64,000 nt of DNA from Struthio camelus. Its lineage: Eukaryota. The notes below the pieces were generated by a model that saw only the letters and a list, made by a program, of their open reading frames with translations, was not told the origin of the DNA and made no database searches. Where the stretch lies: contig NC_090942.1 of the NCBI RefSeq assembly GCF_040807025.1, positions 204,246,640 to 204,310,639 of the forward strand, read 5' to 3'. Position numbers and translations under genes: made by a program. Below are positions 3,190-60,448 of the stretch, piece by piece; the first letter of the stretch is position 1, and every line of letters begins with the position of its first letter.

Positions 3190-4230
3190 GGAAAAGCTGC
3201 CTGAAACATCACTCGCTACCTGTGCAGCCTGCAAAGCCTGGCTGCAGAGAAAGCGAGGGAGAGCACCACGCGACCAAGCCCACCGGGCCGGCCCTGCTGC
3301 CAGCGCAGGCAGGCGGCCGCCCCGGCCCGCCGCGCTCCCGGGCGCCTTCCCGGCGGCAGGGCAGCCCGAGCGCCGGGAGCCGCCGGCCCCGCCGGGCCGC
3401 AGGGCTGCGCGCCAGCCCGCCCAGGCACCCGGCCCCGCCGCGGGGAGGGCGGCCGTGACAGGCGGCGGCGGCGGCGCCACCGCCGCGCACTCACCCCCTC
3501 GGTCTTCACGTCCAGGATCTTCTCCACCTCGAACACGTCCTCCTCCTCCTCCTCGCTCTCGCCGCCGGCCGCCGCGCCCGCCGCCTTGCCAGACCCGCCG
3601 CCGCCGCCGTCTTCCTCCTCGTCCTCCTCGTCCTCGGCCGCAGCCGCCGTCTCCTCCTCTTCCGCCGCCCCCTCCAGCCTGGCCGCTGCTGCCGCCGCCG
3701 CCGCCGCCGCCTCTGCGCCTCTCTCGGCCGCCGCCGCCATCTTGGGCCGAATTTCAAACGACAACGGGGAAAAGCGGCTGCGACATCCACCGCCGGGCGA
3801 GGAGGCGGCGGGGCGGCCGCCGCAGCCAATCGGCGCCCCGCCAGCCCGTGACGCACGGAGGCGGGGCCCAAGCCTAGGGGCCTCCGTGCCCTCAGCCTGG
3901 CAGCTGGGTGCGGCCAATGAGCGGCGCTGGCGGCGGGGCCGTGACAGGGGGCGGCCGCCGCGTCTGCAGCCGCCGCCGGGCGGGCGGGGGCGGCGGTCAG
4001 CGCCGGGCCCCGCGCGGCGGCTCCCGGGGGCCCCCGGCCCGCCCTTCCCGAGTGCGAGCGATCGCTGAGGAGCGGCCCGGCTGCCCGCTCCCGCCCGCAC
4101 CCCTGGCGCAACGCGCGGCGGGCAGGGCCCCCCCTGGGGACAGGAAGCCCTTCGCGGCAGCCACGTACTGTTTCAGTTTCTGGGGCAGTGGCCCGTCGCC
4201 GGGGAGAGGAGGGCACTCAGCCCTAACGGC
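3190..4230. promoter_or_regulatory. MPHOSPH8: CpG island / promoter of MPHOSPH8 (minus strand). It has Sp1-like GC boxes and CCAAT boxes (gccaatcgg ~3823-3831, ggccaatgag ~3913-3922) upstream of the ATG.
   Basis: About 1 kb of >75% GC with dense CpG and (GCC)n/(GCG)n runs. It contains the first coding exon. Long overlapping ORFs on all frames here are GC artefacts. Confidence 0.75.
3495..3740 (-). CDS. MPHOSPH8: MPHOSPH8 (M-phase phosphoprotein 8, MPP8) coding exon 1. It runs from the ATG at 3740 through an acidic/poly-Ala N-terminus to the start of the chromodomain (…EEEEEDVFEVEKILDVKTEG). The donor GTGAGT is at 3494-3489.
   Basis: Revcomp translation gives MAAAAERGAEAAAAAAAAAARLEGAAEEEETAAAAEDEEDEEEDGGGGGSGKAAGAAAGGESEEEEEDVFEVEKILDVKTEG|gtgagt. 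The EDVFEVEKILD[M/V]KTEG motif is the MPP8 chromodomain start, and exon 1 ends after TEG as in mammals. Exon 2 (GKVLYKVRWKG…) was not found in 1-3494. Confidence 0.8.
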
Positions 4231-18792: not shown

Positions 18793-21480
18793 TCACAGAA
18801 TCACAGAATGGCCATGGTTGGAAGGGACCTGTGGAGATCATCTAGTCCAACCCCCCTGCTCAAGCAGGGTCCTCTAGAGCACATTGCCCAGGATCGCGTC
18901 CAGGCAGGTTTTGAATATCTCCAGCGAAGGAGACTCCACTAGCTCTCTGGGCAGCCTGGGCCAGTGCTCGGTCACCCTCACAGCACAGAAGGTTTTTCCT
19001 CATGTTCAGACGGAACTTCCTGTGTTGCCGTTTGTGTCCGTTGCCTCTTGTCCTGTCACTGGGCACCACGGAGAAGAGTCTGGCCCCATCCTCTCGACAC
19101 CCTCCCTTCAGATACTCGTACACATTGATGAGATTCCCCCCCCACCTCAGTCTTCTCTTCTCCAGGCTAAACAGGCCCAGCTCCCTCAGCCTTTCCTCAT
19201 AAGAGAGGTGCTCCAGTCCCCTAATCATCTTCGTAGCCCTCCACTGGACTTTCTCCAGGAGTGCCATGTCTGTCTTGTCCTGGGGAGCCCAGAATTGGAC
19301 ACAGTACTCCAGGTGAGGCCTCCCCAGGGCTGAGGAGAGGGGCAGGATCACCTCCCTCCACCTGCTGGCAACACTCTGCCTAATGCACCCCAGGAGACCA
19401 TTGGCCCTACCAGCGCATTGCTGGCTCATGGTCAACTTGTTGTCCACCAGCACTCCCAGCTCCTTCTCTGCAGAGCTACTTTCCAACAGGTCAGGCCCCA
19501 GCCTGTACTGGTGCATGGGGTTATTCCTCCCGAGGTGCAGGACCCTGCACTTGCCTTTGTTGAACTTCAGGAGGTTCCTCTGCACCCACCTCTCCAGCCT
19601 CTCCAGCTCCCTCTGAATGGCAGCACAGTCTTCTGCTGTGTCAGTAACTCTCCCCTCCCCCCCCCCCCCCCCCGGTTTAGTATCATCAGCCAACTTGCTG
19701 AGGGTGCACGCTGTCCCTTCATCCAGGTCATCGATGAATACATTGAACAGGACTCTGGACCCAGGACTGACCCCTGGGGGACACCGCTAGCTCCAGGCCT
19801 CCAGCTAGACTCTGTGCCACTGAACACAACCCTCAGAGCTCAGCCATCCAGCCAGTTCTCAATTCACCTCACTGTCCACTCATCCAACCCACACTTCCTG
19901 AGCTTACCTAGGAGGATGTGATGGGAGACAGTGTCCAAAGCCTTGCTGAAGTCCAGGGAGACAACATCCACTGCTCTGCCCTCATCTACCCAGCCACTCA
20001 TTCCATCAGAGAGGCTATCACATTGGTCAAGCAGGATTTCCCTTTGGTGAATCCGTGCTGACTACTCCGGATCACCTTCTTGTCCTCCATGTGCTTAGTG
20101 ACAACCTCCAGGATGAGCTCTTCCATCACTTTTTTCCAGGGATGGAGGTGAGGCTGACAGGCCGGTAGTTTCCTGGCTCCTCCTTCTTGCCCTTCTGGAA
20201 GACTGGGGTGACAATGGCTTTCTTCCAGTCCTCAGGCACCTCTCCTGTTCTCCAGGACCTTTCCAAGATGATGGAGAGTGGCCTAGCAATGATGTCCACC
20301 AGCTCCCTCAGCACTCGTGGGTGCATCCCATCAGGGCCCATGAACTTGTGGATGTCAAGTTTGCTTAAGTGATTCCCACCCCCACACCCCACAGGAAAGT
20401 CTTTCTCCAGACCGTCTCCTAGTCTTCCTTTTGTTACTACTGTATTTAAAGAAAACTTTTGATACAGCCTTAATACATGACTTGCGTCTTAGGCAAATCC
20501 TGTGCCTTAGTTGTTGTTCGTTGGCACCCGATAGTCATTTATAACAGATGGTTCAGACCTGAACATTGTTATTCACAAGGATGTTGGCTTTCTTCCTGTC
20601 CTCAGGCACCTCTCCTGATCTCCAGGACCTTTCCAAGATGATGGAGAGTGGCCTAGCAATGATGTCCACCAGCTCCCTCAGCACTCATAGGTGCATCCCG
20701 TCGGGGCCCATGGATTTATAGATGTCAGGTTTGGACAAATGATCTCTAACCTGATCCTCCTCCACCAAGGGAGAGTCTTCCTTTCTCCAGACTTTGTCTT
20801 GTCCCCAGGGTCTGGAATTCCCGAGGACTGGCCTTAGCAGTACAGACTGAAGCAAAGAGGCATTCAGGAACTCTGCCTTCTCTGTATCCTTCGTCACCAG
20901 GGCACCCGCCCCATTCAGCAGCGGGCCCACGTTTTCCCTAGTCTTCCTTGGGGATGTACTGATGTATTTGAAGAAGCCCTTCAAAAGTGTCCTTGACATC
21001 CCTTGCCAGATTTAATTCCAACTGGGCCTTAGCCTTCCTTGTCGCATCCCTGCACGCTCTGACAACGTCCCTGTATTCCTCCCAAGTGGCCTGTCCCCTT
21101 TTCCACATTCTGTGTACTTCCTTCTTCTGAGTTTTGCCAGGAGTTCCTTGCTCATCCATGCAGGTCTCCTGCCCGCTTTGCTGGACTTCTTACTCAGAAG
21201 GATGCACCAATCTTGAGCCTGGAGGGAGTGATGCTTGAATATTAAGCAGCTCTCTTGGACCCCCCTTCCATGAGATTCCTCCAAGTAGGTTCCTGAAGAG
21301 GCCAAAGTTAGCTCTCCTGAAGTCCAGGGTGGCGATCCTGCTTACTGCCCTGCTCCCTCCTCGTAGGATCCTGAACTCCACCATCTCATGGTCACTGCAG
21401 CCAAGGCTGCCCCCAACCTTCATATCTCCAACCAGACCTTCTTTGTTTGTTAGTACCACTGCCTGCTCTGGATAGTTCTG
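18793..21480 (-). mobile_element. Compound CR1 LINE insertion, antisense to the + strand and lying in a PARP4 intron. It is at least two CR1 copies (join near 20400-20580) with long intact RT-domain ORF pieces and a 3' end with (attctgtg)-type 8-mer repeats at 18793.
   Basis: The revcomp of 18793-19120 is the canonical CR1 3' UTR/ORF2 end (…ggggttggactagatgatctccacaggtcccttccaac…attctgtgattctgtga). The minus ORFs 18860..19693 (277 aa), 20126..20392, 20685..21483 encode CR1 ORF2 RT segments (…[23 protein letters not shown]…). The block 20215-20340 is repeated at 20581-20700, which indicates two copies. Confidence 0.85.
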
Positions 21481-22415
21481 CATATATCACTCAAATGACA
21501 GCCAGAATAGCAAGAGGGAAAATCTTATGGGCTGATCCTTCCCCGCTAGCCAAAAACTGAAGTACAGGCCAGATACCAGCCCCGCTGCTGCCCATTCTCT
21601 ACTAACATTGTCCTAGAAGTGGGCAGACTTGATGCATGAGGTAGAGCTGTAGAAATATAACTATACAGAGAGCCTGAAAAGCATTACACATGGGGTCCTG
21701 GATTATTTGAAAATTACAGACGCATCAAGAGTTAACCATCAGAAGTTACAGAACATGATTACTACAGTCTTCATCACTATAGCAAGGGCAATGTTGTAGG
21801 TAGACTGTGAGACACAACAGAAGTGAAGCACTGTTTTTCCATTCAGGTACAATTTATATATTATATATTTTGACAGTTCATAGTCTTTTTCCAAGTTGGT
21901 GTTACTGTGCTAATCAAAAACAGTACAGGAGATCTCTTATCAAGAACAGAAAAAAAATAGAATAAGTCATGGCTTCTTCCTTGCTTTCTTTAACACACTG
22001 AATGCCCATTCTGAATGAGAAGGTGGGTCAACTGCAGTGGCAAATTCCCTCCCCTATCACAGAACCTAGGGTGTTCTACAGCTCTCATCTGTCTTCCTAG
22101 CAACACGTGTTCCTGCTAAAAACAAGGAACAAACTTGAAACCTTAATAATACTCAGACTAAACACTTCCCTTTCTCACTTACTATGCACTTACATTTAAA
22201 ATAAAATAAAATTTAATAGACAAGCATCCTTCTTTCCACCTTCTATGAAATGCATCATCTTAAATTATGCTAATGTAATACTAAAGCCACATGAACCCAC
22301 GGAAAGTAGTAATTTTCATTTTGGGTTACTGAAGATATTCAGTATCAGATATTGATACAGCTGATATATTGATAATGATCACATAATGAAGATTTTCAGG
22401 ATTTAGAAAAGTACC

Positions 22416-46376: not shown

Positions 46377-46630
46377 TGGAGTAAATCTGAATGGAGAGAT
46401 AAATAACACACCCGCACCACCACAGTTTATTGTTTCAGTATGTTGCATCCACATGATTCTGCACCATGTATTCCTCCTTGCTCTATTCATTTTTCAACCC
46501 ATTTAGAACCACCACAATCTATGACCAGCTATGAAAACAAGTAAAATTATTATTTGTATCACAATAACAAGCAGAAGCTCCTCTCAGGCTTCACTGTACT
46601 GACTGCTGTACAATTCAATCTATTTTGATT

Positions 46631-46985
46631 GAGAGAGGGGATCTCATCAATGTATACAAGTATCTGAAGGGAGGGTGTCGAGAGGATGGGGCCAGATTCT
46701 TCTTCGTGGTGCCCAGTGACAGGACAAGAGGCAACGGACACAAACGGCAACACAGGAAGTTCCGTCTGAACAGGAGGAGAAACTTCTTTCCTGTGAGGGT
46801 GACAGAGCAGTGGCCCAGGCTGCCCAGAGAGCTAGTGGAGTCTCCTTCCCTGGAGATATTCAAAACCTGTCTGGACGCGATCCTGGGCGATGTGCTCTAG
46901 AGGACCCTGCCGGAGCAGAGGGGTTGGACTAGATGATCTCCACAGGTCCCTTCCAACCTCACCCGTTCTGTGATTCTGATTCTAT
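46631..46985 (+). mobile_element. CR1 LINE 3' fragment (~355 bp) carrying the C-terminal ORF2 remnant, in a PARP4 intron.
   Basis: The plus ORF 46625..46900 (…[45 protein letters not shown]…) is the CR1 ORF2 C-terminus, followed by …ggggttggactagatgatctccacaggtcccttccaacctcacccgttctgtgattctgattct. Confidence 0.85.
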
Positions 46986-50535: not shown

Positions 50536-52633
50536 ACATGATGTAAGTTAAAGCTCTCCTCATAGGTCAATGACCCAATTGACCCAGATCAATGAAAGGT
50601 CATAACATCAGAATGACATTAGATCTATTTTACTTGAAACCAATGTTATAAAAGCATATATTTTCATTTGTCATATATAACAAAGTACAGCTTTAGAAAG
50701 AAAGAGCTCTTCCCAAATACAATGTTTCTCAGCACTGAGTGCAGATACATGCTGAGGTTCCCATCTGCAGATAGGGTGAAATGCTTGCTTACTCATAATT
50801 GAGTTTCTGAAGCTGGGGTAAGGTCTGTCCTGAATAGGCCAGCCATTTATTAGTGGTCCTGAGTATCTCAGAGCTCACAATTTCTAGATACTGATATTTT
50901 AACTTTGCATTATATTTATAAAGATTTTTCGAGATACATATTTCAATTAAGACATGTTTGTATTGCATAATACACATCTGTTAATTCACTTGCTATATTT
51001 AGGAATTCTTTTTTTTTTTTAGCAATTGTTTTTCCAAGTTCTTTTTTTTTTTTTTTTTTTTTTAAATGAGGAAATTTCCTTGACTCTCTTTTTCCCCCCA
51101 GCTCACACTTAGAGGTCAGCAGTATGAAGGGATGAATGCGAACCTTATTTTGACGCATCACTGTGCCGCGGCTCTGGTGGTGTAAAGAACCATGGGCTGG
51201 ACAATAAATAACTCTTACAGCGCAAAGAAATCTGTCAAGTCTCTGGAATACTATTCCTAAATTGGGTATGTTATTTTTCACTGTCTCTCCTAAACAGATG
51301 TGCATTGTCAAGAGTTGCCAGGAAACAGCTGTGCTCCGAGTAAGGTGATGATGCACCTGCAATACTCCTTTTCTTCACGCACTCCTTTTCTTTTATTCAA
51401 AGTCAGCTCCCTATGTTACGCATAATTTAAATTGTAGACTCTCGAGGACAGCATCTACAGCTTTTGCTGTTTGTAAAGTGACAACCATCCATGGAAGCTG
51501 TATGTACACCAGCAGGTTTTAAAGTAACATGTTTAATTTTATATTAGGAAAAGTTACACGTAAGTGACAGGGAGAAATTAGCTCCCTTGATCATACTCTT
51601 CTCAAAACTAAGAAGAAAAAAAAAGATAAAACAAGAAATAAAATCATAACAATGCACTTCCTTCTCCCAAGGGGGATCAGAAGCAAGCACTCTAATATGA
51701 CAATATAAATGAGCTTGCCATAAGTTATGAGTTATGAGGGAAAAAATAAATGTTACTTTCAAGTGTCAGAAGCGATAAGATGCTGAGTATTTTTATGCTA
51801 CCCCTTCACTAAGAAGTTACATAATCCACTCCCTGTCACTGGCAAGTGAATATCTATATTGTTATGGCACTGGCATATTCCTTGACATACTTCTGGCCTC
51901 AACCAATGTGCATCTCTCCAGTTTCCAGCATGGTTTGGGAGACAGATCATCACCGTGACCATTCCCAATAGGCAGTTTGGATATGAACACTTGGTCCTGA
52001 GGGCCAAGAGAGTTCACTAGCACAGATGTGGGCCAAGCCATACCATAGTCACAGACGGGGCCACAGACCCTGGAAACCCAAGTCGTGTTTAATATACTAA
52101 TATAAACTTAGCCTACTGGTTTCATTGTTGCAATGCAACATGCATGCCATGCAAGCAGGCTCCTTGATTGGTCCATGCTGCATGTTGAATATGTATTTAA
52201 AATATAAAGCCGGATTTAAAATAGAAAGCTGCAATATCACAGCCATCTATTTTCACTCAGGAAACAAATGTTTTCATTAATACAAACAACAACATAACTA
52301 AAGCCCAATTCATGATGCATGTCCTTATTCAGTGTTTCCTCTCCCTGACGATAAGAAAAGAAAAATAGCATGGCAGTTTTATCCAGGACAGAAACCTCCT
52401 GGTTCTTTCGTGGAGAGAAAATATTGCTCTTAATTTTGTATGTGACATTTCAATACTGCAGAGCCAGATGCATTAAAAAGGAAAACAGAATTATTTCTAC
52501 TGAAATATTAAACAGAGAAATAATCCCTATAGTTCTTATGATTTCTCTAGAAGCGGTAAGACTAACAGTCTACCACACATAACAGTATTTGATATTTTCC
52601 TACAGAGATCTTGGAAATGAATCTGAAACATAC

Positions 52634-52766
52634 CTTGTGATCAAGCACAAAATGAATTACTCCACCATTTTCGTTAATGCATGTTTTCAGTCTATTCTTC
52701 TCCCGAATAGGTAAGTGCTTCACTTTTAAAAAAAACACACAGTTTGCAAAGATTGTCATCACGCTC
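52634..52766 (-). CDS. PARP4: PARP4 first coding exon. The ATG is at 52759-52757, and the CDS portion 52634..52759 reads MTIFANCVFFLKVKHLPIREKNRLKTCINENGGVIHFVLDHK. A strong acceptor (ccttttttaacag|gagcgtg) lies 7 nt upstream of the ATG at 52767/8, so this is exon 2 of the transcript, with an untranslated exon 1 further upstream.
   Basis: It matches the human PARP4 N-terminus MVMGIFANCIFCLKVKYLPQQQKKKLQTDIKENGGKFSFSLNPQ. Donor aag|gtatgt. Confidence 0.8.
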
Positions 52767-55700
52767 CTGTTAAAAAAGGAAATTGTTTTTTTGGCTGAAA
52801 AGAACTTTCATTCCTATTTTCCATCTAAGTAATCTCCCACCAAATATACTCTTTTCAACTCTAGAAAATACCAAAACAAATCCCATTTTATTAGCATGGA
52901 AATCGAACCGTTCTTTATTTGTTTTATTCATTTTTTTTTTAAATGACGTGGAAAATTTAGCGTGCCCTACGTTTTCAGTAAAGTCATGGCATGAACCAAT
53001 TGCCAAACTCATGTCTTGATCTCTTGCTGCTAATAGCCATTGTTAGAAATGTGGAATTATCTTATTTTAGACTAGAACAATCTTTCTGTTCCCCTTTCAG
53101 ACAATACCCTATAAAACAACTCTCTTCTTCAAGACCGTAAACTGTTTCTCATGTTTCCACTCGCAGATGTATATAATCTGTAAACACAAAGAAACCATTT
53201 AAAAATGATTTTGCAAAACTGATCCAGATTAAACCCAATACAGCAAAAAACAACAAAACAAAAGGTTAGTCTTAATCCAGATCCGTTTTCCGATTTGATT
53301 CGCCCTGTAAATTTGCCTTGGGCAAAGATCTACATTGGAAGACAGGAGGGGTAGCGTAGCAGTGGAAGCGAGTAGTCAGGGGAGGGGTGGAGGTAGGCAA
53401 ACAGCTTCTTTTCTTAGTAGTGCCTGCCTACAATGTCTGTAAAACAACTTCAGTGAAAATTGGCTACGTGTTATTTGTGACAAACTACGCTGAGATATGG
53501 GAGGCTGGGAAAGTTTTATTTAATCAGGAGTAGAATTTACGATAACCAAATGTAAAGGCAGTGTCTGACTTAAGGCATTAAAACGTATCCTCATTATATA
53601 CCTATTTTCCTGGCTGCTTGTGCGTGCAAAGTTATTATTTTAAAAATGGATGGAAACATTAAAAAGAATTGTAGTGTAAGTGAGAACACTTTATGACCAC
53701 TGAGCTCTATATGTATCACTTAAAGGCTCTCCTGGAGACCCCCGTGACATGCTGCGGACCTTAAGCGGCACATGAGCGTTAAGTGCAAGCTAGCCTTAGC
53801 CTGGGTGGTTAATAGAGGCTCACACCTATGTCCCCATTAGACATATCGGAAGCGCAGCGCTCAGTTTAGTTTTCTCTGAAAGGCATTCAGATTGCACATC
53901 TCAAAACCACTTTGAGACCTTCATCAATATAAGGCAATTGGTGACAACCAGAAGATTTGGCTTAAAACCGTATTTCTGCTCCAAGCCAAATTGCTAATGC
54001 AGATGGACCCTACAGTAACTAGCATTGAAGAGAACATATGCCTTTAAAATAAAATATTCTGGTCAGAAATCCTTTTTACCAGTAATTCGCTGGCTAACCA
54101 TTGAGTCCATATCTCAGCCAGAAGGTTAGTATCAAAGTTACTTGTAAAGACTGTGTTTACTCAGACTTCTCATATTTCTGGAAAAGTTACTTGATGATGA
54201 AAATTTTTCACCATGGCTTAAGACCAAATATTTGTAACTGCGAGATGACTGGACAAAAATGACAATCCAGAATATCTGCCTTCTCCAAATTCATCCTGTA
54301 CTCACAGAACGAGGCAGAACAAATAAGAAATTGCTCCTTAAAAAACAAAGACAACGCAAAAGGAAAGTATTTCTTGCGTTGGCCAAAAATGTCTGACATT
54401 AAGTGCCCTCTGTTTTGGACAGGCCACTGAGAAGAAAAAAAAAAAAAAAAAAAAAGAGCTTTCTCCAACTTGACACGTGCACTGCAAATACTGATTAAGC
54501 CTCTACCCTCCAAATCCTAGAAATAAAAAACAATTTCATTAAAGATTGAAGAAAGAAAGCAGAAGGAATTCAAAAAGTTTATTTCCATTTTCCACCATAC
54601 ATTTTTCCACACTAAGTGTAGGCGTACGCGAGCAAACATTTATTAGAACAGTTTCCTTAACAATTTCTAACTAAAAACTAAGCCTACACGTGAATTACCC
54701 AGTAGGTTCTCCTGAGTTAAAAAGCAGCATTGGTCAAATTGCACCAATAGCTCAACAAAGCTTTTACATCAACTCTGCAGAAAGATTCAGCTATAGCGTG
54801 TAGAAAAAAAACAAACAAAAAACCCAGTAACATTGCAGAGGAAGTATTTAGGTGGCATTGCACAAGTCCAGAGCAGATGATTAGTATAAGGTTTCAGATA
54901 AATGAATGAACCTGTAGTAATTTAGGAGTGGGATTACAATTGAGGACTGAGTATATTTTCTTACTCTGTGGCATGATTGCTTTTCAATGAATGCAAGTAA
55001 AATCATTTTTCAATGCAGTAAATAAAGCAATACTCTTCCCAGCTACTGTGGAATAACTAAGCAATGAGCGGAAGAATAGGAAGGAGTTTGTCTAAGGCAG
55101 AGAGCAATATAATTTGAATTTTGGGTTTCAGGAAAGCCTGGAAAAACCAATACCATCAGACATGATTTTATACATACCTGTACAATTTGATCTTGAAAAG
55201 GTAATCTGTAAGAAAGGCCCAAACCATCTACTACACTAAACATCTGAGAGAACTGGCGACCCTGTAGTTCTAATACATACATTTAGACCAGGCAGGCGGC
55301 AATTCAAAGATCAAAGGGCACACGAAGGCGCTATAAACCTGTATTTTGTGGCTCTTGTTTTCTGTTGTCTGGAATTAGCAATCCTTTTGGCATAAAAGTA
55401 CAGACAGAAAAACACATCTTCTTTATATATTTTAACTAAGAGGTTTTCACAAGATACCGTGGTATCTGAGGTGATAAAGGTCTTACAAGCCAGCCTTCAT
55501 GTAATTCAGCTCTGTTGGAAACTATAACTTTAAGGAGCTCTACTGTGTGGTGTAAGCTGCTTTTATCAACTTTATTTTGAATCTTGCCACAAATAAAATA
55601 CATTAATTTGAGGGATATGCAAGGGTTAATGGGCCGTTCCCAAAGGTTTCCCTTAATAATCACAGAATGGACCTGGGCACTGCCTCCCTTTCTACTCCCA

Positions 55701-58173
55701 GACCTCTGCATGCACTGATTTTCTCAGTCTGCTCCCTAAAGCAGATTCAGGCCACTTCAAAAGTTTCATCAGAAGTTGTCTCCACAGAAAATAATGAATT
55801 CCATTTGCATAGCCTAAACAAAAAGATTATTAAAAGACAATAAAATTAATTACAAGCATCAGTCCTGCCAGCACATCTATATCTCACTTTAAAACATCCG
55901 AAACAACTGAAACTGGTAGCTACATGTGGCATAAAGACTCCACAATGTTATTTTACATTACATTTTGCTTATGAAAATTATGCTGCTTGCTACACACTGA
56001 GGAGAAATTGTTGAGAGAGCTGACCTGTAAATAAACCATACATCAGCCAGCAAGCAGAGAGGAATGCGTAAACTTGAGGGAAGGGCGGATTAATTTCCTC
56101 CGAGTTTGTTTGCAAAGAAACCCGCCCATCCTTCTGTACCGCCAACATTACAGGCATTAAATGATCCTTGATCCCACTCCTCTCTTTACATTCTGAGCAA
56201 CACAAACCACGTACGCTCATCCGCTGAGGCGGCTCCCCTCCCCTCAAGGGTCTTCTTGCCTCCCCAACAGTGCGATACAACTGGAGAGACAGGAGGGCGT
56301 TGTGAGAGAGGAAGGACTAGGACACACTCATTCCTCAAACACTGTAAAAAGCCCAAAGGGGCAGCAACACTGATTGTGACCCAGTCAAATAAACCAAACC
56401 AAGCCAAGCTGAGTCTACCACACAGCTAGAGGCAATAACCCTCTCCAAACTTGCAAGAATGAGGAAACTGCCACTGAAAAGGGCAAGTGAACTTTGGAAT
56501 TCCTCACAGAGTACAGGAAATCGAGTTGAAACCTGTTCAGAGTCTACTACCAGGAGCTTTTCTCTCCCCTAAGCAAACAGGATTTTATTCTCTTCCACTG
56601 TTGATGAACACTACCACTGAATACTAGTCTCTCTTCTATTCTTCTGAGAATTCAGAAAAGTTTCTGAGAATTAAACTTTTCAAGGAATTTTATCAAAGCC
56701 TTTGGCTTTAAGCTTTTTGAGCTATAAAACTCTCAAACTTCAAAATCAGAATAGGAGACCATTCTATTGATCCTGCATGTTGAAAATTAATTAGCAGCTG
56801 ATAGACACTTTCTAAACTGGAAAGTGTGTTGCTGCAGCACCAGATAAGAAAATTATGTAAAGGAAAACTGTTGACAATCACTGCTAGCTTAACTCCTACA
56901 ATTTTAATTTGTGTCAGTGGAGATCAGTAAAGCTTTATTTGCCTCAAAGGAATTTCCCACAAGTAAGTGAGGTTGTACTTCCTGGTTAAACTGTGATCTT
57001 GGGATCAGCATTAGCATCAGATTACATTTATAGCATGAAGAGGGAGCCAAAGAGAAATTTCTATCATCTAAAAATAGTTCATGCGTAACCTGGAATCCTG
57101 TAAGGCCTTCAGCACGCAGAAATATTGAAAACAAACCTCTACTGTAGTTTCCAAATAAAGGAATTAAAAGTGATGCCGGGCTTTAAAAAGCCACAGGTAG
57201 AAATCCTCGTCATTTCTATCACAGCAGTTTCACACTCCTAATGCAGATTCTATTTTTAGGACAATCACGTAGAAAATATACTCCTAACTGGAAAAAGGAA
57301 AGTGCAGGGAAGATGATTTAAAGTTTAGGAGAAAGAATCACGTGGAATTATAGAAAGAAGAAACAGCTGAAATTAAAACCAGTACTCAGCAATTGGAAGG
57401 GCTGCCACAGGTACGTACAGCCTAGAGCAGAGTTTTGTACTCGCCCACGATAGGAAAGAGCAAAACCAGGTCACAACCTGCTACACACCGTGAGCTTTTC
57501 GTGCGTGATGCTGTGCCTTTTACTAGAGTTTAGAGGAAACCGCTCATTTTGGAGTGTGTGTAGGAGTGGGACGCTCAACAGGACAGCGCACATCCAAAAC
57601 GCAAAACGTCAGAAAGCCAAGGTTACGCTCTTTGCCCGTTTGTCTTTCCACTCCTCGCTTACTGCGGCTATATAAAGATTAAAAGCGCATCAGAAACTGC
57701 TATAAAAGCAAAGAAAAGGCCCAAGCCGCACCCCCACAGGAAAACCCCACCCCTGCAAGGCTTGCGGACCGCTCACTAGGCAGGAACAGCAATTTTTTGC
57801 GGCGGTTGCCCGTGGATCCTGCGCGGAAGTGGCCGTTAGCCTCCGAGGCTTTCCAGGCCGCCTCGGGGGGCCGGGCCGGGCCGGGCCGGGGCGCGGCGCG
57901 AAACTCGACGCCCGCCGCGGCTTCGCGGCGACGCCGTGCGAAGAGCAAACCCGCGCTCCCACAGGGCCGCGACACCGGAGGGAGCCGGGGGGGAAAAGCG
58001 AGGCGCATCTACCTGCGAGGCCACCCCGGGAGCGAGGGGCAGGTCGAGGTGCCGGAAAGAAACCGTCCTAGCCCGATCCGCGCCGCCTCCAGCCGCGCCG
58101 AGCAGGAACAGGAGCGCGGGCGCGGCGGCGGTGGAGGCGGTAGATACCGTTGAAGCCTATCAACGGCCTTTCG

Positions 58174-58203
58174 GCTGCTGAGGCTCGTGGGAGCTGTAGT
58201 TCG
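58174..58203 (-). promoter_or_regulatory. SBS/ZNF143(Staf)-THAP11-like motif in minus orientation: aACTACAgCTCCCAcgagcCtcagc.
   Basis: The revcomp of 58174-58203 contains an ACTACA submotif followed by TCCCA, as in the ZNF143 SBS consensus (ACTACAATTCCCAGCAATGC). It is paired with the site 50 bp away in the opposite orientation. Confidence 0.45.
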
Positions 58204-58250
58204 AACGCCGCAGGGCCGCCTCGCAGCTGGGCGGGCAGGGCCGCGGCTTG

Positions 58251-58279
58251 GGACAACAACTCCCAGCATGCCTGGCGCG
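58251..58279 (+). promoter_or_regulatory. SBS/ZNF143(Staf)-like motif in plus orientation: ggACAACAACTCCCAGCATGCCTGGCGcg.
   Basis: 15 of 18 positions match TTCCCAGAATGCATTGCG, with an upstream ACAACA (ACTACA-like) extension. This is a typical core element of bidirectional CpG promoters. Confidence 0.55.
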
Positions 58280-60058
58280 GGGCGTCGTCGTTCAGCCTGT
58301 GGCGCCGGGAGGCTGTGCGATGGCGGCAGGTTTGTAAGAGACGAGGAGGGCCGGGGCCGGGGCCGGGGCCGGAGCGACGCGGTGTCGGCGGCAGCGGCGA
58401 GCGGGGGTGCGAGGAACGGGGCTGCCGCTGCCGCCTCGGCATCTGCGAGGGGCCGCGGGTCGTTGCTGCCCCGGGGCGGGGGGAACGGCGGGCCGGCCTC
58501 TGTGAGGGCGCCGCGGCGCTGGGGTGTCCCCGGGCGAAGGGAGATGCCGCTGGCCTTGACGCCCCGGCAGCACGCAGAAAGGCTGCGCTCGTCTCCCCGC
58601 CGCCGAGGAGGACTCTGCCGGCTTTTGGAGGGTCCCTTCTTCTCCTCCCCCCCCCCCCCCCCCCCCCCCCCGGGAAGAGGGCAGTTCAGCTTCAGCTTTT
58701 GGTCTGCACAAAGGGGCTGCTGCCCTTAAACTTTAGGAGGAGCTTTAAATAGATCGCACCTTTGTCAGAAAGGAGTTCTGCTTCACGTACGTTTTAGGAG
58801 GCTTGTCTTTAGGCTCTAGAAATCTGCTGGGCAGTGATCTAACACGAGTTTTCAGTGTGTTGTCGCAGAATGAAGTTGAAGACCGTTCGTTCAAGGCAAT
58901 ATTGTTGTCTCTCTTAGATATAGGCCGCTCTGCTGCTTCTCATGCTGTTGTCTCTGTGAAACTTTGCTAAAAGCTTAAGCCCTTTTACAGTTTCTGCATG
59001 TGTGGAATTGCATGTGGAAAATTAAACAAGAGCTGGCATGGGACTGGTCTCTTGGGAATGAGGAAACTTTAAAAAGTTGTTTCCTGATCAGCAGCACTGT
59101 TGACAACTGATTTCCTCTGATTGAATGCCCTCTGTTCCCTAATTTCGTCTTCCATCTATGTTCCTTATGACGCACCGTACGCACAGGCAGAGAGTTAATT
59201 GCTCTCAGACTAGTTTGAGGTAGCAGTGCTGAGGGGCCAGACTGTTGTTGCCACATGAGCAACAGCAGTTCAGTCTCTGGCCTTAGAGGGGACATCGCTT
59301 TGGGTTTCTTAGCTACCTGAATTTGTTACTACTTCATGAAACCTGTAGGAATTTGATCGTCACTGACACTTTTATAGTCTTGAAACTTTTCCTGTGGATT
59401 GAAAAAAAAGATGGTGGGAAGAGGAGGAAGAGCTTATTAGGCAGTGTGGTTCTAGAGCTTCCATGAGAAACCAAGGAAAGCGTGAAAGTGATGATAAAGT
59501 GCTGCTCTGAAATATACAATCAGTAAAAGGATTGTATTTAGACAGACTTTAAACATTACACTAATATGAAGGTCCTGTGAGGGCAATACCTTTTTCAGCG
59601 CCTCGAAACATTTCTCTCTCCTTTTCTTGTGGATGCTCTTCAAAAGCTCTGAACCCATTCCTGTACTATTGAATAGAACAGAATATTGTGTAGAGCTTTA
59701 TAACATTTGAGATGTTATGATGTTATTTATTTGAATGCAGTTAATATCAAAGTTGAAAAGTTACATTGTGTTGACATCCTGTATAGAAAGTGTGCTAGTG
59801 GTCCAAACTGATTTTATTGCCCAAGAGAAAAACAGATAATGACTCAGTATATTAAGTTAGCTATAAGAGAGTAAATTTCTGTTTGAGAATCTATTACTGT
59901 AGAATTCTAATTCTGTTTATCTGTTTAATTTCTAGGCACTAAAAGAAGATAATCATCCATACTAAACACCTGGAACTTTGAAAATTTTACTGTCGTAACA
60001 CTAGATAATGTTATATTGTTATGTTATTTGGTGATGCAACTTTAAAGTGGAATACAAG

Positions 60059-60448
60059 ATGCCAGCTGTTGAAGATCTAAGTACTGAATCAAACTTCATT
60101 GCACATTGGATGTCTGACACTTCCCGTGCTGGAGTCTTACTAGATCCTAATTTTCCTAGGCTGAAAATCAACAAAGAAAGTGTGTTATCTGGACATGAAA
60201 ACATCACAGCTTTCCTTGCAGAAGTGCAGCATCTTTCAAACAGCTGCTCTCTAAGTGAGGACTCCTTGTGTGAAGAACAAATACTGGAAGCTGGCAGCTC
60301 TTGTAGACTTCAGCAGCAAACCACTGAAACATCTTTTTCAGCAGCAGCATATAATTTAGAAGCCTCTCAAACAGAACTTGTCCATGGTGAAGTAAATGGT
60401 CGGAATAAATCAGATTACAATGATCCACTCTTACAAAAGCTTGAACAG
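60059..60448 (+). CDS. CENPJ: CENPJ (CPAP) first coding exon, transcript exon 2, with the likely acceptor at 59937/8: MPAVEDLSTESNFIAHWMSDTSRAGVLLDPNFPRLKINKES … DYNDPLLQKLEQ. The donor is cag|gtaaaa.
   Basis: It matches the human CENPJ N-terminus [44 protein letters not shown]…YKDPLFKKLEQ. The first in-frame ATG follows an in-frame TGA. The upstream part of the exon contains short uORFs, and the untranslated exon 1 should lie in the CpG island. Confidence 0.8.

Follow-up and report, generated by a model that had tools for sequence, protein, structure and literature searches.

The first coding exon of PARP4 in the ostrich (Struthio camelus) directly follows a splice acceptor, and the neighbouring gene CENPJ lies on the opposite strand, pointing away from it. 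This raises the question of where transcription of PARP4 begins and whether the two genes share a promoter. Here, we examine a stretch of 64,000 nucleotides (nt) from contig NC_090942.1 (positions 204,246,640 to 204,310,639), referred to below as the window and numbered from its first base. Its sequence is that of a bird-like vertebrate, with introns rich in AT, CpG islands of very high GC content, and interspersed repeats. An initial annotation had described PARP4 and CENPJ as a head-to-head pair around a single CpG island and proposed that this island holds a non-coding first exon of PARP4. The observation is confirmed and the interpretation is supported by the analysis: the region is likely to be a conventional bidirectional CpG-island promoter, common to the housekeeping-type genes PARP4 and CENPJ/CPAP.

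A head-to-head gene pair around one CpG island

The features that define the arrangement are:

52634..52766, minus strand: PARP4 exon 2, the first coding exon (translation, tblastn match to the N-terminus, Pfam BRCT_2, conserved acceptor)
57700..58700, no strand: shared CpG island (GC 0.68-0.80, CpG observed/expected ratio (o/e) 0.66-1.15)
59936..60448, plus strand: CENPJ exon 2 (translation; homologous exon open reading frames (ORFs) in eight bird contigs, 63-75% identity)

The coding exons, their translations, and homology place PARP4 on the minus strand, running downward from 52759, and the coding part of CENPJ on the plus strand from 60059, with one island in between. A tblastn search with a human PARP4 sequence found 27 exon matches in collinear order on the minus strand, between 52762 and 6219, and all probed exons are present and open in the window. 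The joined exons match the Pfam domains BRCT_2 (1.6e-7, residues 4-89), PARP (4.6e-26), VIT (5.3e-28), and VWA_3 (8.9e-9), and the combination of BRCT, PARP, VIT, and VWA in one protein identifies the gene as PARP4 (vault PARP).

The CENPJ exons in the window are N-terminal only and have no Pfam match, and the identity of this gene rests on orthology rather than on domains in the window. Exon 2 encodes MPAVEDLSTESNFIAHWMSDTSRAGV... In the collinear bird contig L001, ORFs with the Tubulin-bind_CPAP domain (PF25779) are located downstream of the homologous exon on the same strand, and the collinear gene in Amazona ochrocephala (NCBI chromosome, L013; hereafter Amazona) contains both PF25779 and PF07202 (Tcp10_C), also on the same strand. 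Since the homologous exons lie upstream of Tubulin-bind_CPAP ORFs, the plus-strand gene is assigned to CENPJ/CPAP. Its exon 2 comprises 123 nt of 5' untranslated region (UTR), the ATG at 60059, and 130 codons, followed by the donor CAG/GTAAAA after 60448 (a slash marks the splice site). The initial annotation gave this exon as 59938-60448; the end is correct, while the acceptor ttctag/GCACT places the start 2 nt earlier, at 59936.

PARP4 exon 2 begins at 52766, following the acceptor tttccttttttaacag/GAGCGTG with its AG at 52768-52767. It contains 7 nt of 5' UTR, the ATG at 52759-52757, which opens the minus-strand frame MTIFANCVFFLKVKHLPIREKNRLKTCINENGGVIHFVLDHK, and 42 codons before the donor AAG/GTATGT after 52634. 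The ATG is thus located 7 nt past a strong acceptor, as first described. The acceptor is also conserved in other birds, reading ttttaacag/GAG in two chicken-like contigs (L005 and L006) and in L008, at 7-10 nt before the ATG. This conservation supports the existence of a spliced upstream exon.

The promoter-like island that the initial annotation placed at about 57730-58700 stands out clearly when GC and CpG content are measured in 200-nt windows across 57700-58699. There is no comparable CpG patch at 52700-57400, where only 56100-56299 is borderline (GC 0.54, o/e 0.68). The head-to-head arrangement with one shared island therefore holds by translations, tblastn, Pfam, and the GC/CpG windows alike. 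The island contains a 25-nt poly-C tract (58647-58671) and two (GGGCC)n microsatellites (57866-57891 and 58348-58372). Contigs from four of the exon-2 hits were compared (L001-L003, L004, L010, and L011). All except L004 are interrupted at this GC-rich sequence or at the poly-C tract and do not cover the promoter. Breaks at such tracts explain the poor coverage of bird promoters in public assemblies.

Two divergent ZNF143/THAP11-type sites in the promoter core

Three bird sequences span the core of the island: L009, a Logan contig from a galliform-like bird; L014, another Logan contig; and the Amazona chromosome. The latter two were found by a six-frame translated chimeric protein query of the core. 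The stretch 58140-58340 is the best conserved in the other birds, with 50-nt bins across 58190-58339 being 0.76-0.90 identical (L009, Amazona) versus roughly 0.6-0.8 for the introns. A scan of metagenome DNA with the conserved 20-mer CGCAAAACGTCAGAAAGCCA gave only a chance bacterial match (L012). The core contains the following elements:

58147..58166, no strand: palindrome CCGTTGAAGCCTATCAACGG, two inverted CAACGG motifs adjoining SBS A
58176..58200, minus strand: SBS A, SBS2/THAP11-type, pointing to PARP4 (ACTACAG-CTCCCACGAGCCTCAGCA)
58253..58277, plus strand: SBS B, SBS2-type, pointing to CENPJ (ACAACAA-CTCCCAGCATGCCTGGCG)

An SBS motif spans 18 bp, in which positions 3-6 read CCCR and position 12 is C (Anno et al. 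2011, PMC3082894). In the SBS2 variant, ACTACAN immediately precedes the SBS, and the THAP11 site has been defined as ACTACANNTCCCA (Ngondo-Mbongo et al. 2013, PMC3627581). The related M4 motif is ACTAYRNNNCCCR (PMC5006282). Both sites in the core fit this pattern, with CCCA in positions 3-6 and C in position 12, and the ACTACAN extension directly upstream is exact at site A and has one mismatch at site B. The core of SBS A, ACTACAGCTCCCA at 58188-58200 (minus strand), is the only exact match to ACTACANNTCCCA in the 64 kb, and the site also matches ACTAYRNNNCCCR exactly; its ACTACA is exact, and its ACTACAGCTCCC is invariant in four birds. SBS B reads ACAACAACTCCCAGCATGCC from 58253 (plus strand), giving a one-mismatch copy of ACTACANNTCCCA at 58253-58265 in the opposite orientation, 53 nt from SBS A; 1.16 such one-mismatch matches are expected in the whole window. 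The core of SBS B, CCCAGCATGC, is likewise invariant in four birds, and its 5' extension varies, with ACAACA in the window, ACTACA shared by Amazona and L014, and ACTACC in L009. Both copies are conserved in the three other birds.

The two motifs had been noted before, at 58174-58203 and 58251-58279, as a hallmark of divergent promoters. They do diverge, each facing its own gene, and the wording is fair in that SBS/ACTACA motifs are enriched in bidirectional promoters (PMC3082894), where ACTACANNTCCC is over-represented, and a lone SBS drives reporter transcription in both orientations (PMC3082894). A GC box (GGGCGG) is located between SBS A and SBS B. The palindrome next to SBS A has perfect arms (CCGTTGA-AGCCTA-TCAACGG) resembling MYB sites and is conserved in L009 and Amazona, and partly in L014.

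The predicted first exon of CENPJ

58280..58329 (5' end putative), plus strand: predicted non-coding CENPJ exon 1 (donor, conservation)

Donor sites were scored in bits with a simple weight matrix. On the plus strand, a single donor in the island exceeds 5 bits, namely GGCGGCAG/GTTTGTAA at 58329/58330 (5.6 bits), which had not been spotted in the initial annotation. It is invariant in four other bird sequences (L004, L009, L013, and L014), of which L004 starts only a few bases before the donor and shares GGCGGCAG/GTTTGTAA. The surrounding segment at 58307-58337 (plus strand), GGGAGGCTGTGCGATGGCGGCAG/GTTTGTAA, is invariant in the three sequences that span the core and falls in the bin of highest conservation (0.88-0.90). 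Conservation is seen for this donor as well as for the acceptors of both genes. A point that weighs against the assignment is that the donor has T at both +3 and +4, which is unusual for a 5' splice site. TTT/GTAAGA, four nt further downstream (last exon base 58333), may be an alternative donor of the same exon.

Within the predicted exon, ATGGCGGC resembles a YY1 site and at the same time provides an upstream ATG. Spliced to 59936, the exon would yield a short conserved upstream ORF encoding MAAGTKRR in the window and MAAGAKSR in L009 and Amazona, each followed by a stop codon. The 5' UTR part of exon 2 contains three further upstream ATGs.

The predicted first exon of PARP4 and its candidate donors

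About 57778..58170, minus strand: predicted non-coding PARP4 exon 1 (last exon base 57777; 5' end placed only as downstream of SBS A)
52767..57776, minus strand: predicted PARP4 intron 1 (about 5.0 kb with 57777 as donor)

On the minus strand, all donors above 4 bits were tabulated with the same matrix, each given here by its last exon base:

58013, minus strand: CAG/GTAGAT, 6.26 bits
57777, minus strand: CTA/GTGAGC, 5.7 bits
57751, minus strand: GGG/GTGGGG, 5.6 bits
57732, minus strand: GGG/GTGCGG, 4.8 bits
57663, minus strand: GCA/GTAAGC, 4.8 bits
57489, minus strand: ACG/GTGTGT, 7.16 bits
57342, minus strand: CAC/GTGATT, 4.1 bits

The initial annotation had put forward two candidates, CTA/GTGAGC at 57777 and gct/gtacgt at 57418. 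For the latter, the string is present, but it scores below 4 bits and nothing points to 57418. The former is the best-supported candidate. The window, L009, and Amazona all share CTR/GTGAGCnGTCCGCAAG, so that the donor is kept in two of the three other birds covering the site. Furthermore, the first coding exon of the NCBI model of Amazona PARP4 (P0014) ends exactly at the homologous CTG/GTGAGC (L013:10577). Together, the conserved donor and the exon end in P0014 make 57777 the best-supported donor of PARP4 exon 1, and this comparison and the conserved exon-2 acceptor support the proposal of a non-coding first exon in the shared island, about 5 kb upstream.

Several observations weigh against this choice. 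P0014 is flagged as LOW QUALITY and sits on an apparent decayed PARP4 pseudogene. The first 192 residues of the model translate a GC-rich frame that stays open on the strand antisense to CENPJ exon 1 and crosses this exon. The ATG taken as coding start lies past the exon and was probably chosen, as an artefact, because the frame is open. Because of this start and the low quality of the model, the position of its donor is only moderate evidence. L014 lacks the segment with the PARP4 exon-1 donor, the body of the putative exon is poorly conserved (0.08-0.70), and CAG/GTAGAT at 58013 scores slightly higher in the simple matrix.

The last point suggests another version of the same shared promoter, in which PARP4 exon 1 is short (about 100-160 nt), ends at 58013, and is followed by a 5.25-kb intron, CTA/GTGAGC being conserved for another reason. 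Here, 58013 has the top score among the minus-strand donors inside the island, CAG/GT is kept in L009 (CAG/GTGGAG) and GT in Amazona, and use of this site would splice out the sole upstream ATG of the longer exon, at 58008. However, bases +4 and +5 deviate from the donor consensus in every species, the exon of the Amazona model continues across the site, and the sequence is rearranged in L014. We therefore consider the short exon to be rather unlikely.

With 57777 as the preferred donor, the locus would work as follows. The core at about 58140-58340 would act as a TATA-less promoter with two back-to-back SBS2-type sites, the GC box between them, and the small palindrome. The sites are predicted to bind ZNF143 or, alternatively, THAP11/HCF-1; ZNF143 and THAP11 are known to compete on SBS2 sites (PMC3627581). 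Transcription would leave the core in both directions. Rightward, a short non-coding CENPJ exon 1 ending at 58329 would be spliced to 59936, and leftward, a non-coding PARP4 exon 1, most likely ending at 57777, would be joined across an intron of about 5 kb to exon 2 at 52766, with the ATG 7 nt further on. The two predicted exon-1 donors are located 552 nt apart. For first exons without overlap, this spacing would keep the distance between the start sites below 1 kb, the limit commonly used to define bidirectional pairs (PMC3082894). We agree with the initial annotation that the start sites themselves cannot be fixed from sequence alone.

TATA-like strings and a conserved block in PARP4 intron 1

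57596..57690, no strand: conserved non-coding block of about 95 nt, just inside PARP4 intron 1, containing CGCAAAACGTCAGAAAGCC

The initial annotation had also pointed to TATA-like motifs at 57669-57708. The strings are present, the first, TATATAAAG, at 57669-57677 inside the conserved block and the second at 57700-57708. Their action as TATA boxes is not supported, either by position or by conservation. Both are located on the intron side of the predicted PARP4 donor, about 600 nt upstream of CENPJ exon 1, and fall outside the interval between the two predicted exon-1 donors. The second string is AATAAAAG in L009 and deleted in Amazona, and the first is AT-rich elsewhere and partly kept as TATWTAA.

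The block itself is 0.78-0.82 identical to L009 and contains long runs that are invariant across four birds, for example, GGCTTTCTGAC and AAATGGGC. It is probably a cis-regulatory element, and we do not read it as a TATA box for the main promoter of either gene. We also considered a structured RNA at this place and rejected it, as the consensus fold is weak (-11.75 kcal/mol) and shows no real covariation.

The block also bears on whether the island might serve CENPJ only, with PARP4 transcribed from a separate promoter outside the CpG-rich sequence. Such a promoter could coincide with the AT-rich, TATA-like block (57596-57690), in which case the first exon would end at about 57489 or 57663, or it could be located directly upstream of 52766. 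The conservation of the block in four birds, the partly conserved TATA-like string (TATWTAA) in three birds, and the matrix score of ACG/GTGTGT at 57489, the best of all minus-strand candidates, speak for the former location. Nevertheless, the TATA-like string reads better on the plus strand, opposite to the direction of PARP4, and the GT at 57489 is out of register in Amazona. For the latter location, the sequence upstream of PARP4 exon 2 is AT-rich without CpG enrichment, and the conservation of the acceptor and its pyrimidine tract speaks against transcripts that start unspliced at this exon. SBS A, moreover, faces PARP4 and is invariant. A separate PARP4 promoter is therefore very unlikely.

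The combination of SBS motifs, TATA-like strings, and a T-run could alternatively mark a small gene of RNA polymerase III type 3 within the island, instead of or besides the mRNA promoter. SBS motifs are the classic distal elements of such genes (PMC3627581), and the TATA-like strings at 57669-57708 are accompanied by a run of six T at 57793-57798 (plus strand). However, the SBS motifs are located downstream of the TATA-like strings, not upstream, the T-run and the second TATA-like string are absent from L009 and Amazona, and the birds share no conserved RNA fold in the block. Across the whole window, no Rfam model scores above threshold and no tRNA is predicted. The region thus does not have the make-up of a type-3 small RNA gene, and we regard this explanation as extremely improbable. 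PARP4 intron 1 and the island gave no sign of a hidden gene or RNA: no Pfam match on their ORFs, no Rfam or tRNA hit, and no notable repeats.

The locus in Amazona and other birds

The gene order CENPJ, PARP4, and MPHOSPH8 and the orientations of these genes in Amazona CM077877.1 are collinear with the window. In the NCBI annotation of this chromosome, CENPJ (minus strand) and PARP4 (plus strand) are divergent, with coding starts 1,020 nt apart. The likeness extends to the homologous island core and the position of the PARP4 first-exon donor.

Amazona PARP4 (CM077877.1:18647259-18681731; L013 10001-29500) appears to be a decayed and truncated pseudogene, which differs from the open exons in the window. 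No tblastn match was obtained there for 17 of the 27 exon probes from the window, and six of the ten that match carry stop codons. The locus spans about 14-19 kb, compared to about 46 kb in the window, and the NCBI model of 443 amino acids is labelled 'LOW QUALITY'. Despite the apparent decay of PARP4, the promoter core is still conserved. It is doubtful, taken jointly, that the block at 57596-57690 serves as a second core promoter or promoter-proximal enhancer giving a regulated PARP4 or CENPJ isoform in birds and, as a separate matter, that the parrot core is maintained for CENPJ alone. If the latter is true, the parrot would be a natural experiment on a bidirectional promoter after the death of a partner gene.

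L014 has lost or rearranged the counterpart of the PARP4 exon-1 donor segment (CTA/GTGAGCGGTCCGCAAG); at L014:5440-5540, CTGCGGCTGCTCAC resembles an inverted copy. Either a different donor may be used in this bird or its PARP4 may also be compromised.

To look for spliced transcripts, we searched with the CENPJ exon-2 peptide and the spliced PARP4 exon 2+3 peptide. All matches were genomic exon ORFs, from stray bird DNA within metagenome and Logan assemblies, with a best identity of 75%; there were no cDNA-derived sequences among them and nothing from the same species.

Relation to known bidirectional promoters

The locus resembles the ZNF143/Staf bidirectional CpG-island promoters, such as TMEM186-PMM2 and BUB1B (Anno et al. 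2011, PMC3082894), in that head-to-head genes flank one island, SBS motifs carry an ACTACA extension, the predicted starts are less than 1 kb apart, and no functional TATA box is evident. Unlike those examples, it has two diverging sites of predicted SBS2 type, 53 nt apart. Site A matches both the SBS2/THAP11-HCF-1 consensus (Ngondo-Mbongo et al. 2013, PMC3627581) and M4 (PMC5006282) exactly, while site B fits the 18-bp SBS well and has one change in ACTACA; in both sites, the ACTACAN-type extension is directly 5' of the SBS. Site A differs from the SBS consensus in its 3' half (positions 7-18), which is a poor match, so that it may be mainly of the THAP11 type.

The promoter class, the motifs, and the gene order are already established or in public annotation, and in these respects this is a routine textbook bidirectional promoter. 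In the literature searched, we found no paper on the PARP4-CENPJ pair as a bidirectional unit and nothing relevant on a PARP4 pseudogene in birds. What is gained are the likely non-coding first exons of both genes in the ostrich and the suggestion that the bird CENPJ and PARP4 promoters may form one ZNF143/THAP11-type bidirectional unit. This has little significance beyond annotation, with possible uses in studies of how a centriole-duplication gene and the vault PARP are regulated together, and of the fate of shared promoters once one partner is lost, as the parrot locus hints.

The human orthologues of PARP4 and CENPJ are located on 13q12, and each gene begins with a non-coding exon inside a CpG island, the ATG following in exon 2. 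They are presumably not adjacent, with ATP12A and RNF17 in between, and so would not share a promoter. If the human genes are indeed non-adjacent, the head-to-head arrangement would be specific to an avian-type lineage.

Other features of the window

Beyond the block described above, PARP4 intron 1 is 0.6-0.8 identical to other birds, as is typical of introns. The borderline CpG patch at 56100-56299 was considered as an alternative exon or promoter and rejected, as it is no better conserved than its surroundings. About 2.3 kb of the intron (window 52800-55100) has no counterpart in L008, while the chicken-like contigs have it (to 54134); the L008 bird may have a lineage-specific deletion, or the sequence may have diverged beyond alignment. 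Rather than reaching the island, the chicken-like PARP4 contigs (L005-L007) stop about 1.5 kb upstream of exon 2, in a repeat resembling CR1.

Interspersed repeats are located at 18860-21483 (minus strand) and 46625-46900 (plus strand) of the window and at L006:1-290, with ORFs such as ...SLEIFK. We take these to be 3' parts of CR1 long interspersed nuclear elements, although Pfam gave no match on their ORFs.

A second CpG island at 3216-4100 (minus strand) holds an ORF ending in ...EEEEDVFEVEKILDVKTEG. We assume this to be the start of the MPHOSPH8 chromodomain, although Pfam gave no match on the fragment. In Amazona, a gene with Chromo and Ankyrin domains is found at the homologous place downstream of PARP4 and is annotated by NCBI as MPHOSPH8. 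With this MPHOSPH8-like island at 3216-4100, the 3' end of PARP4 (at about 6200) lies about 2 kb from the promoter of the next gene.

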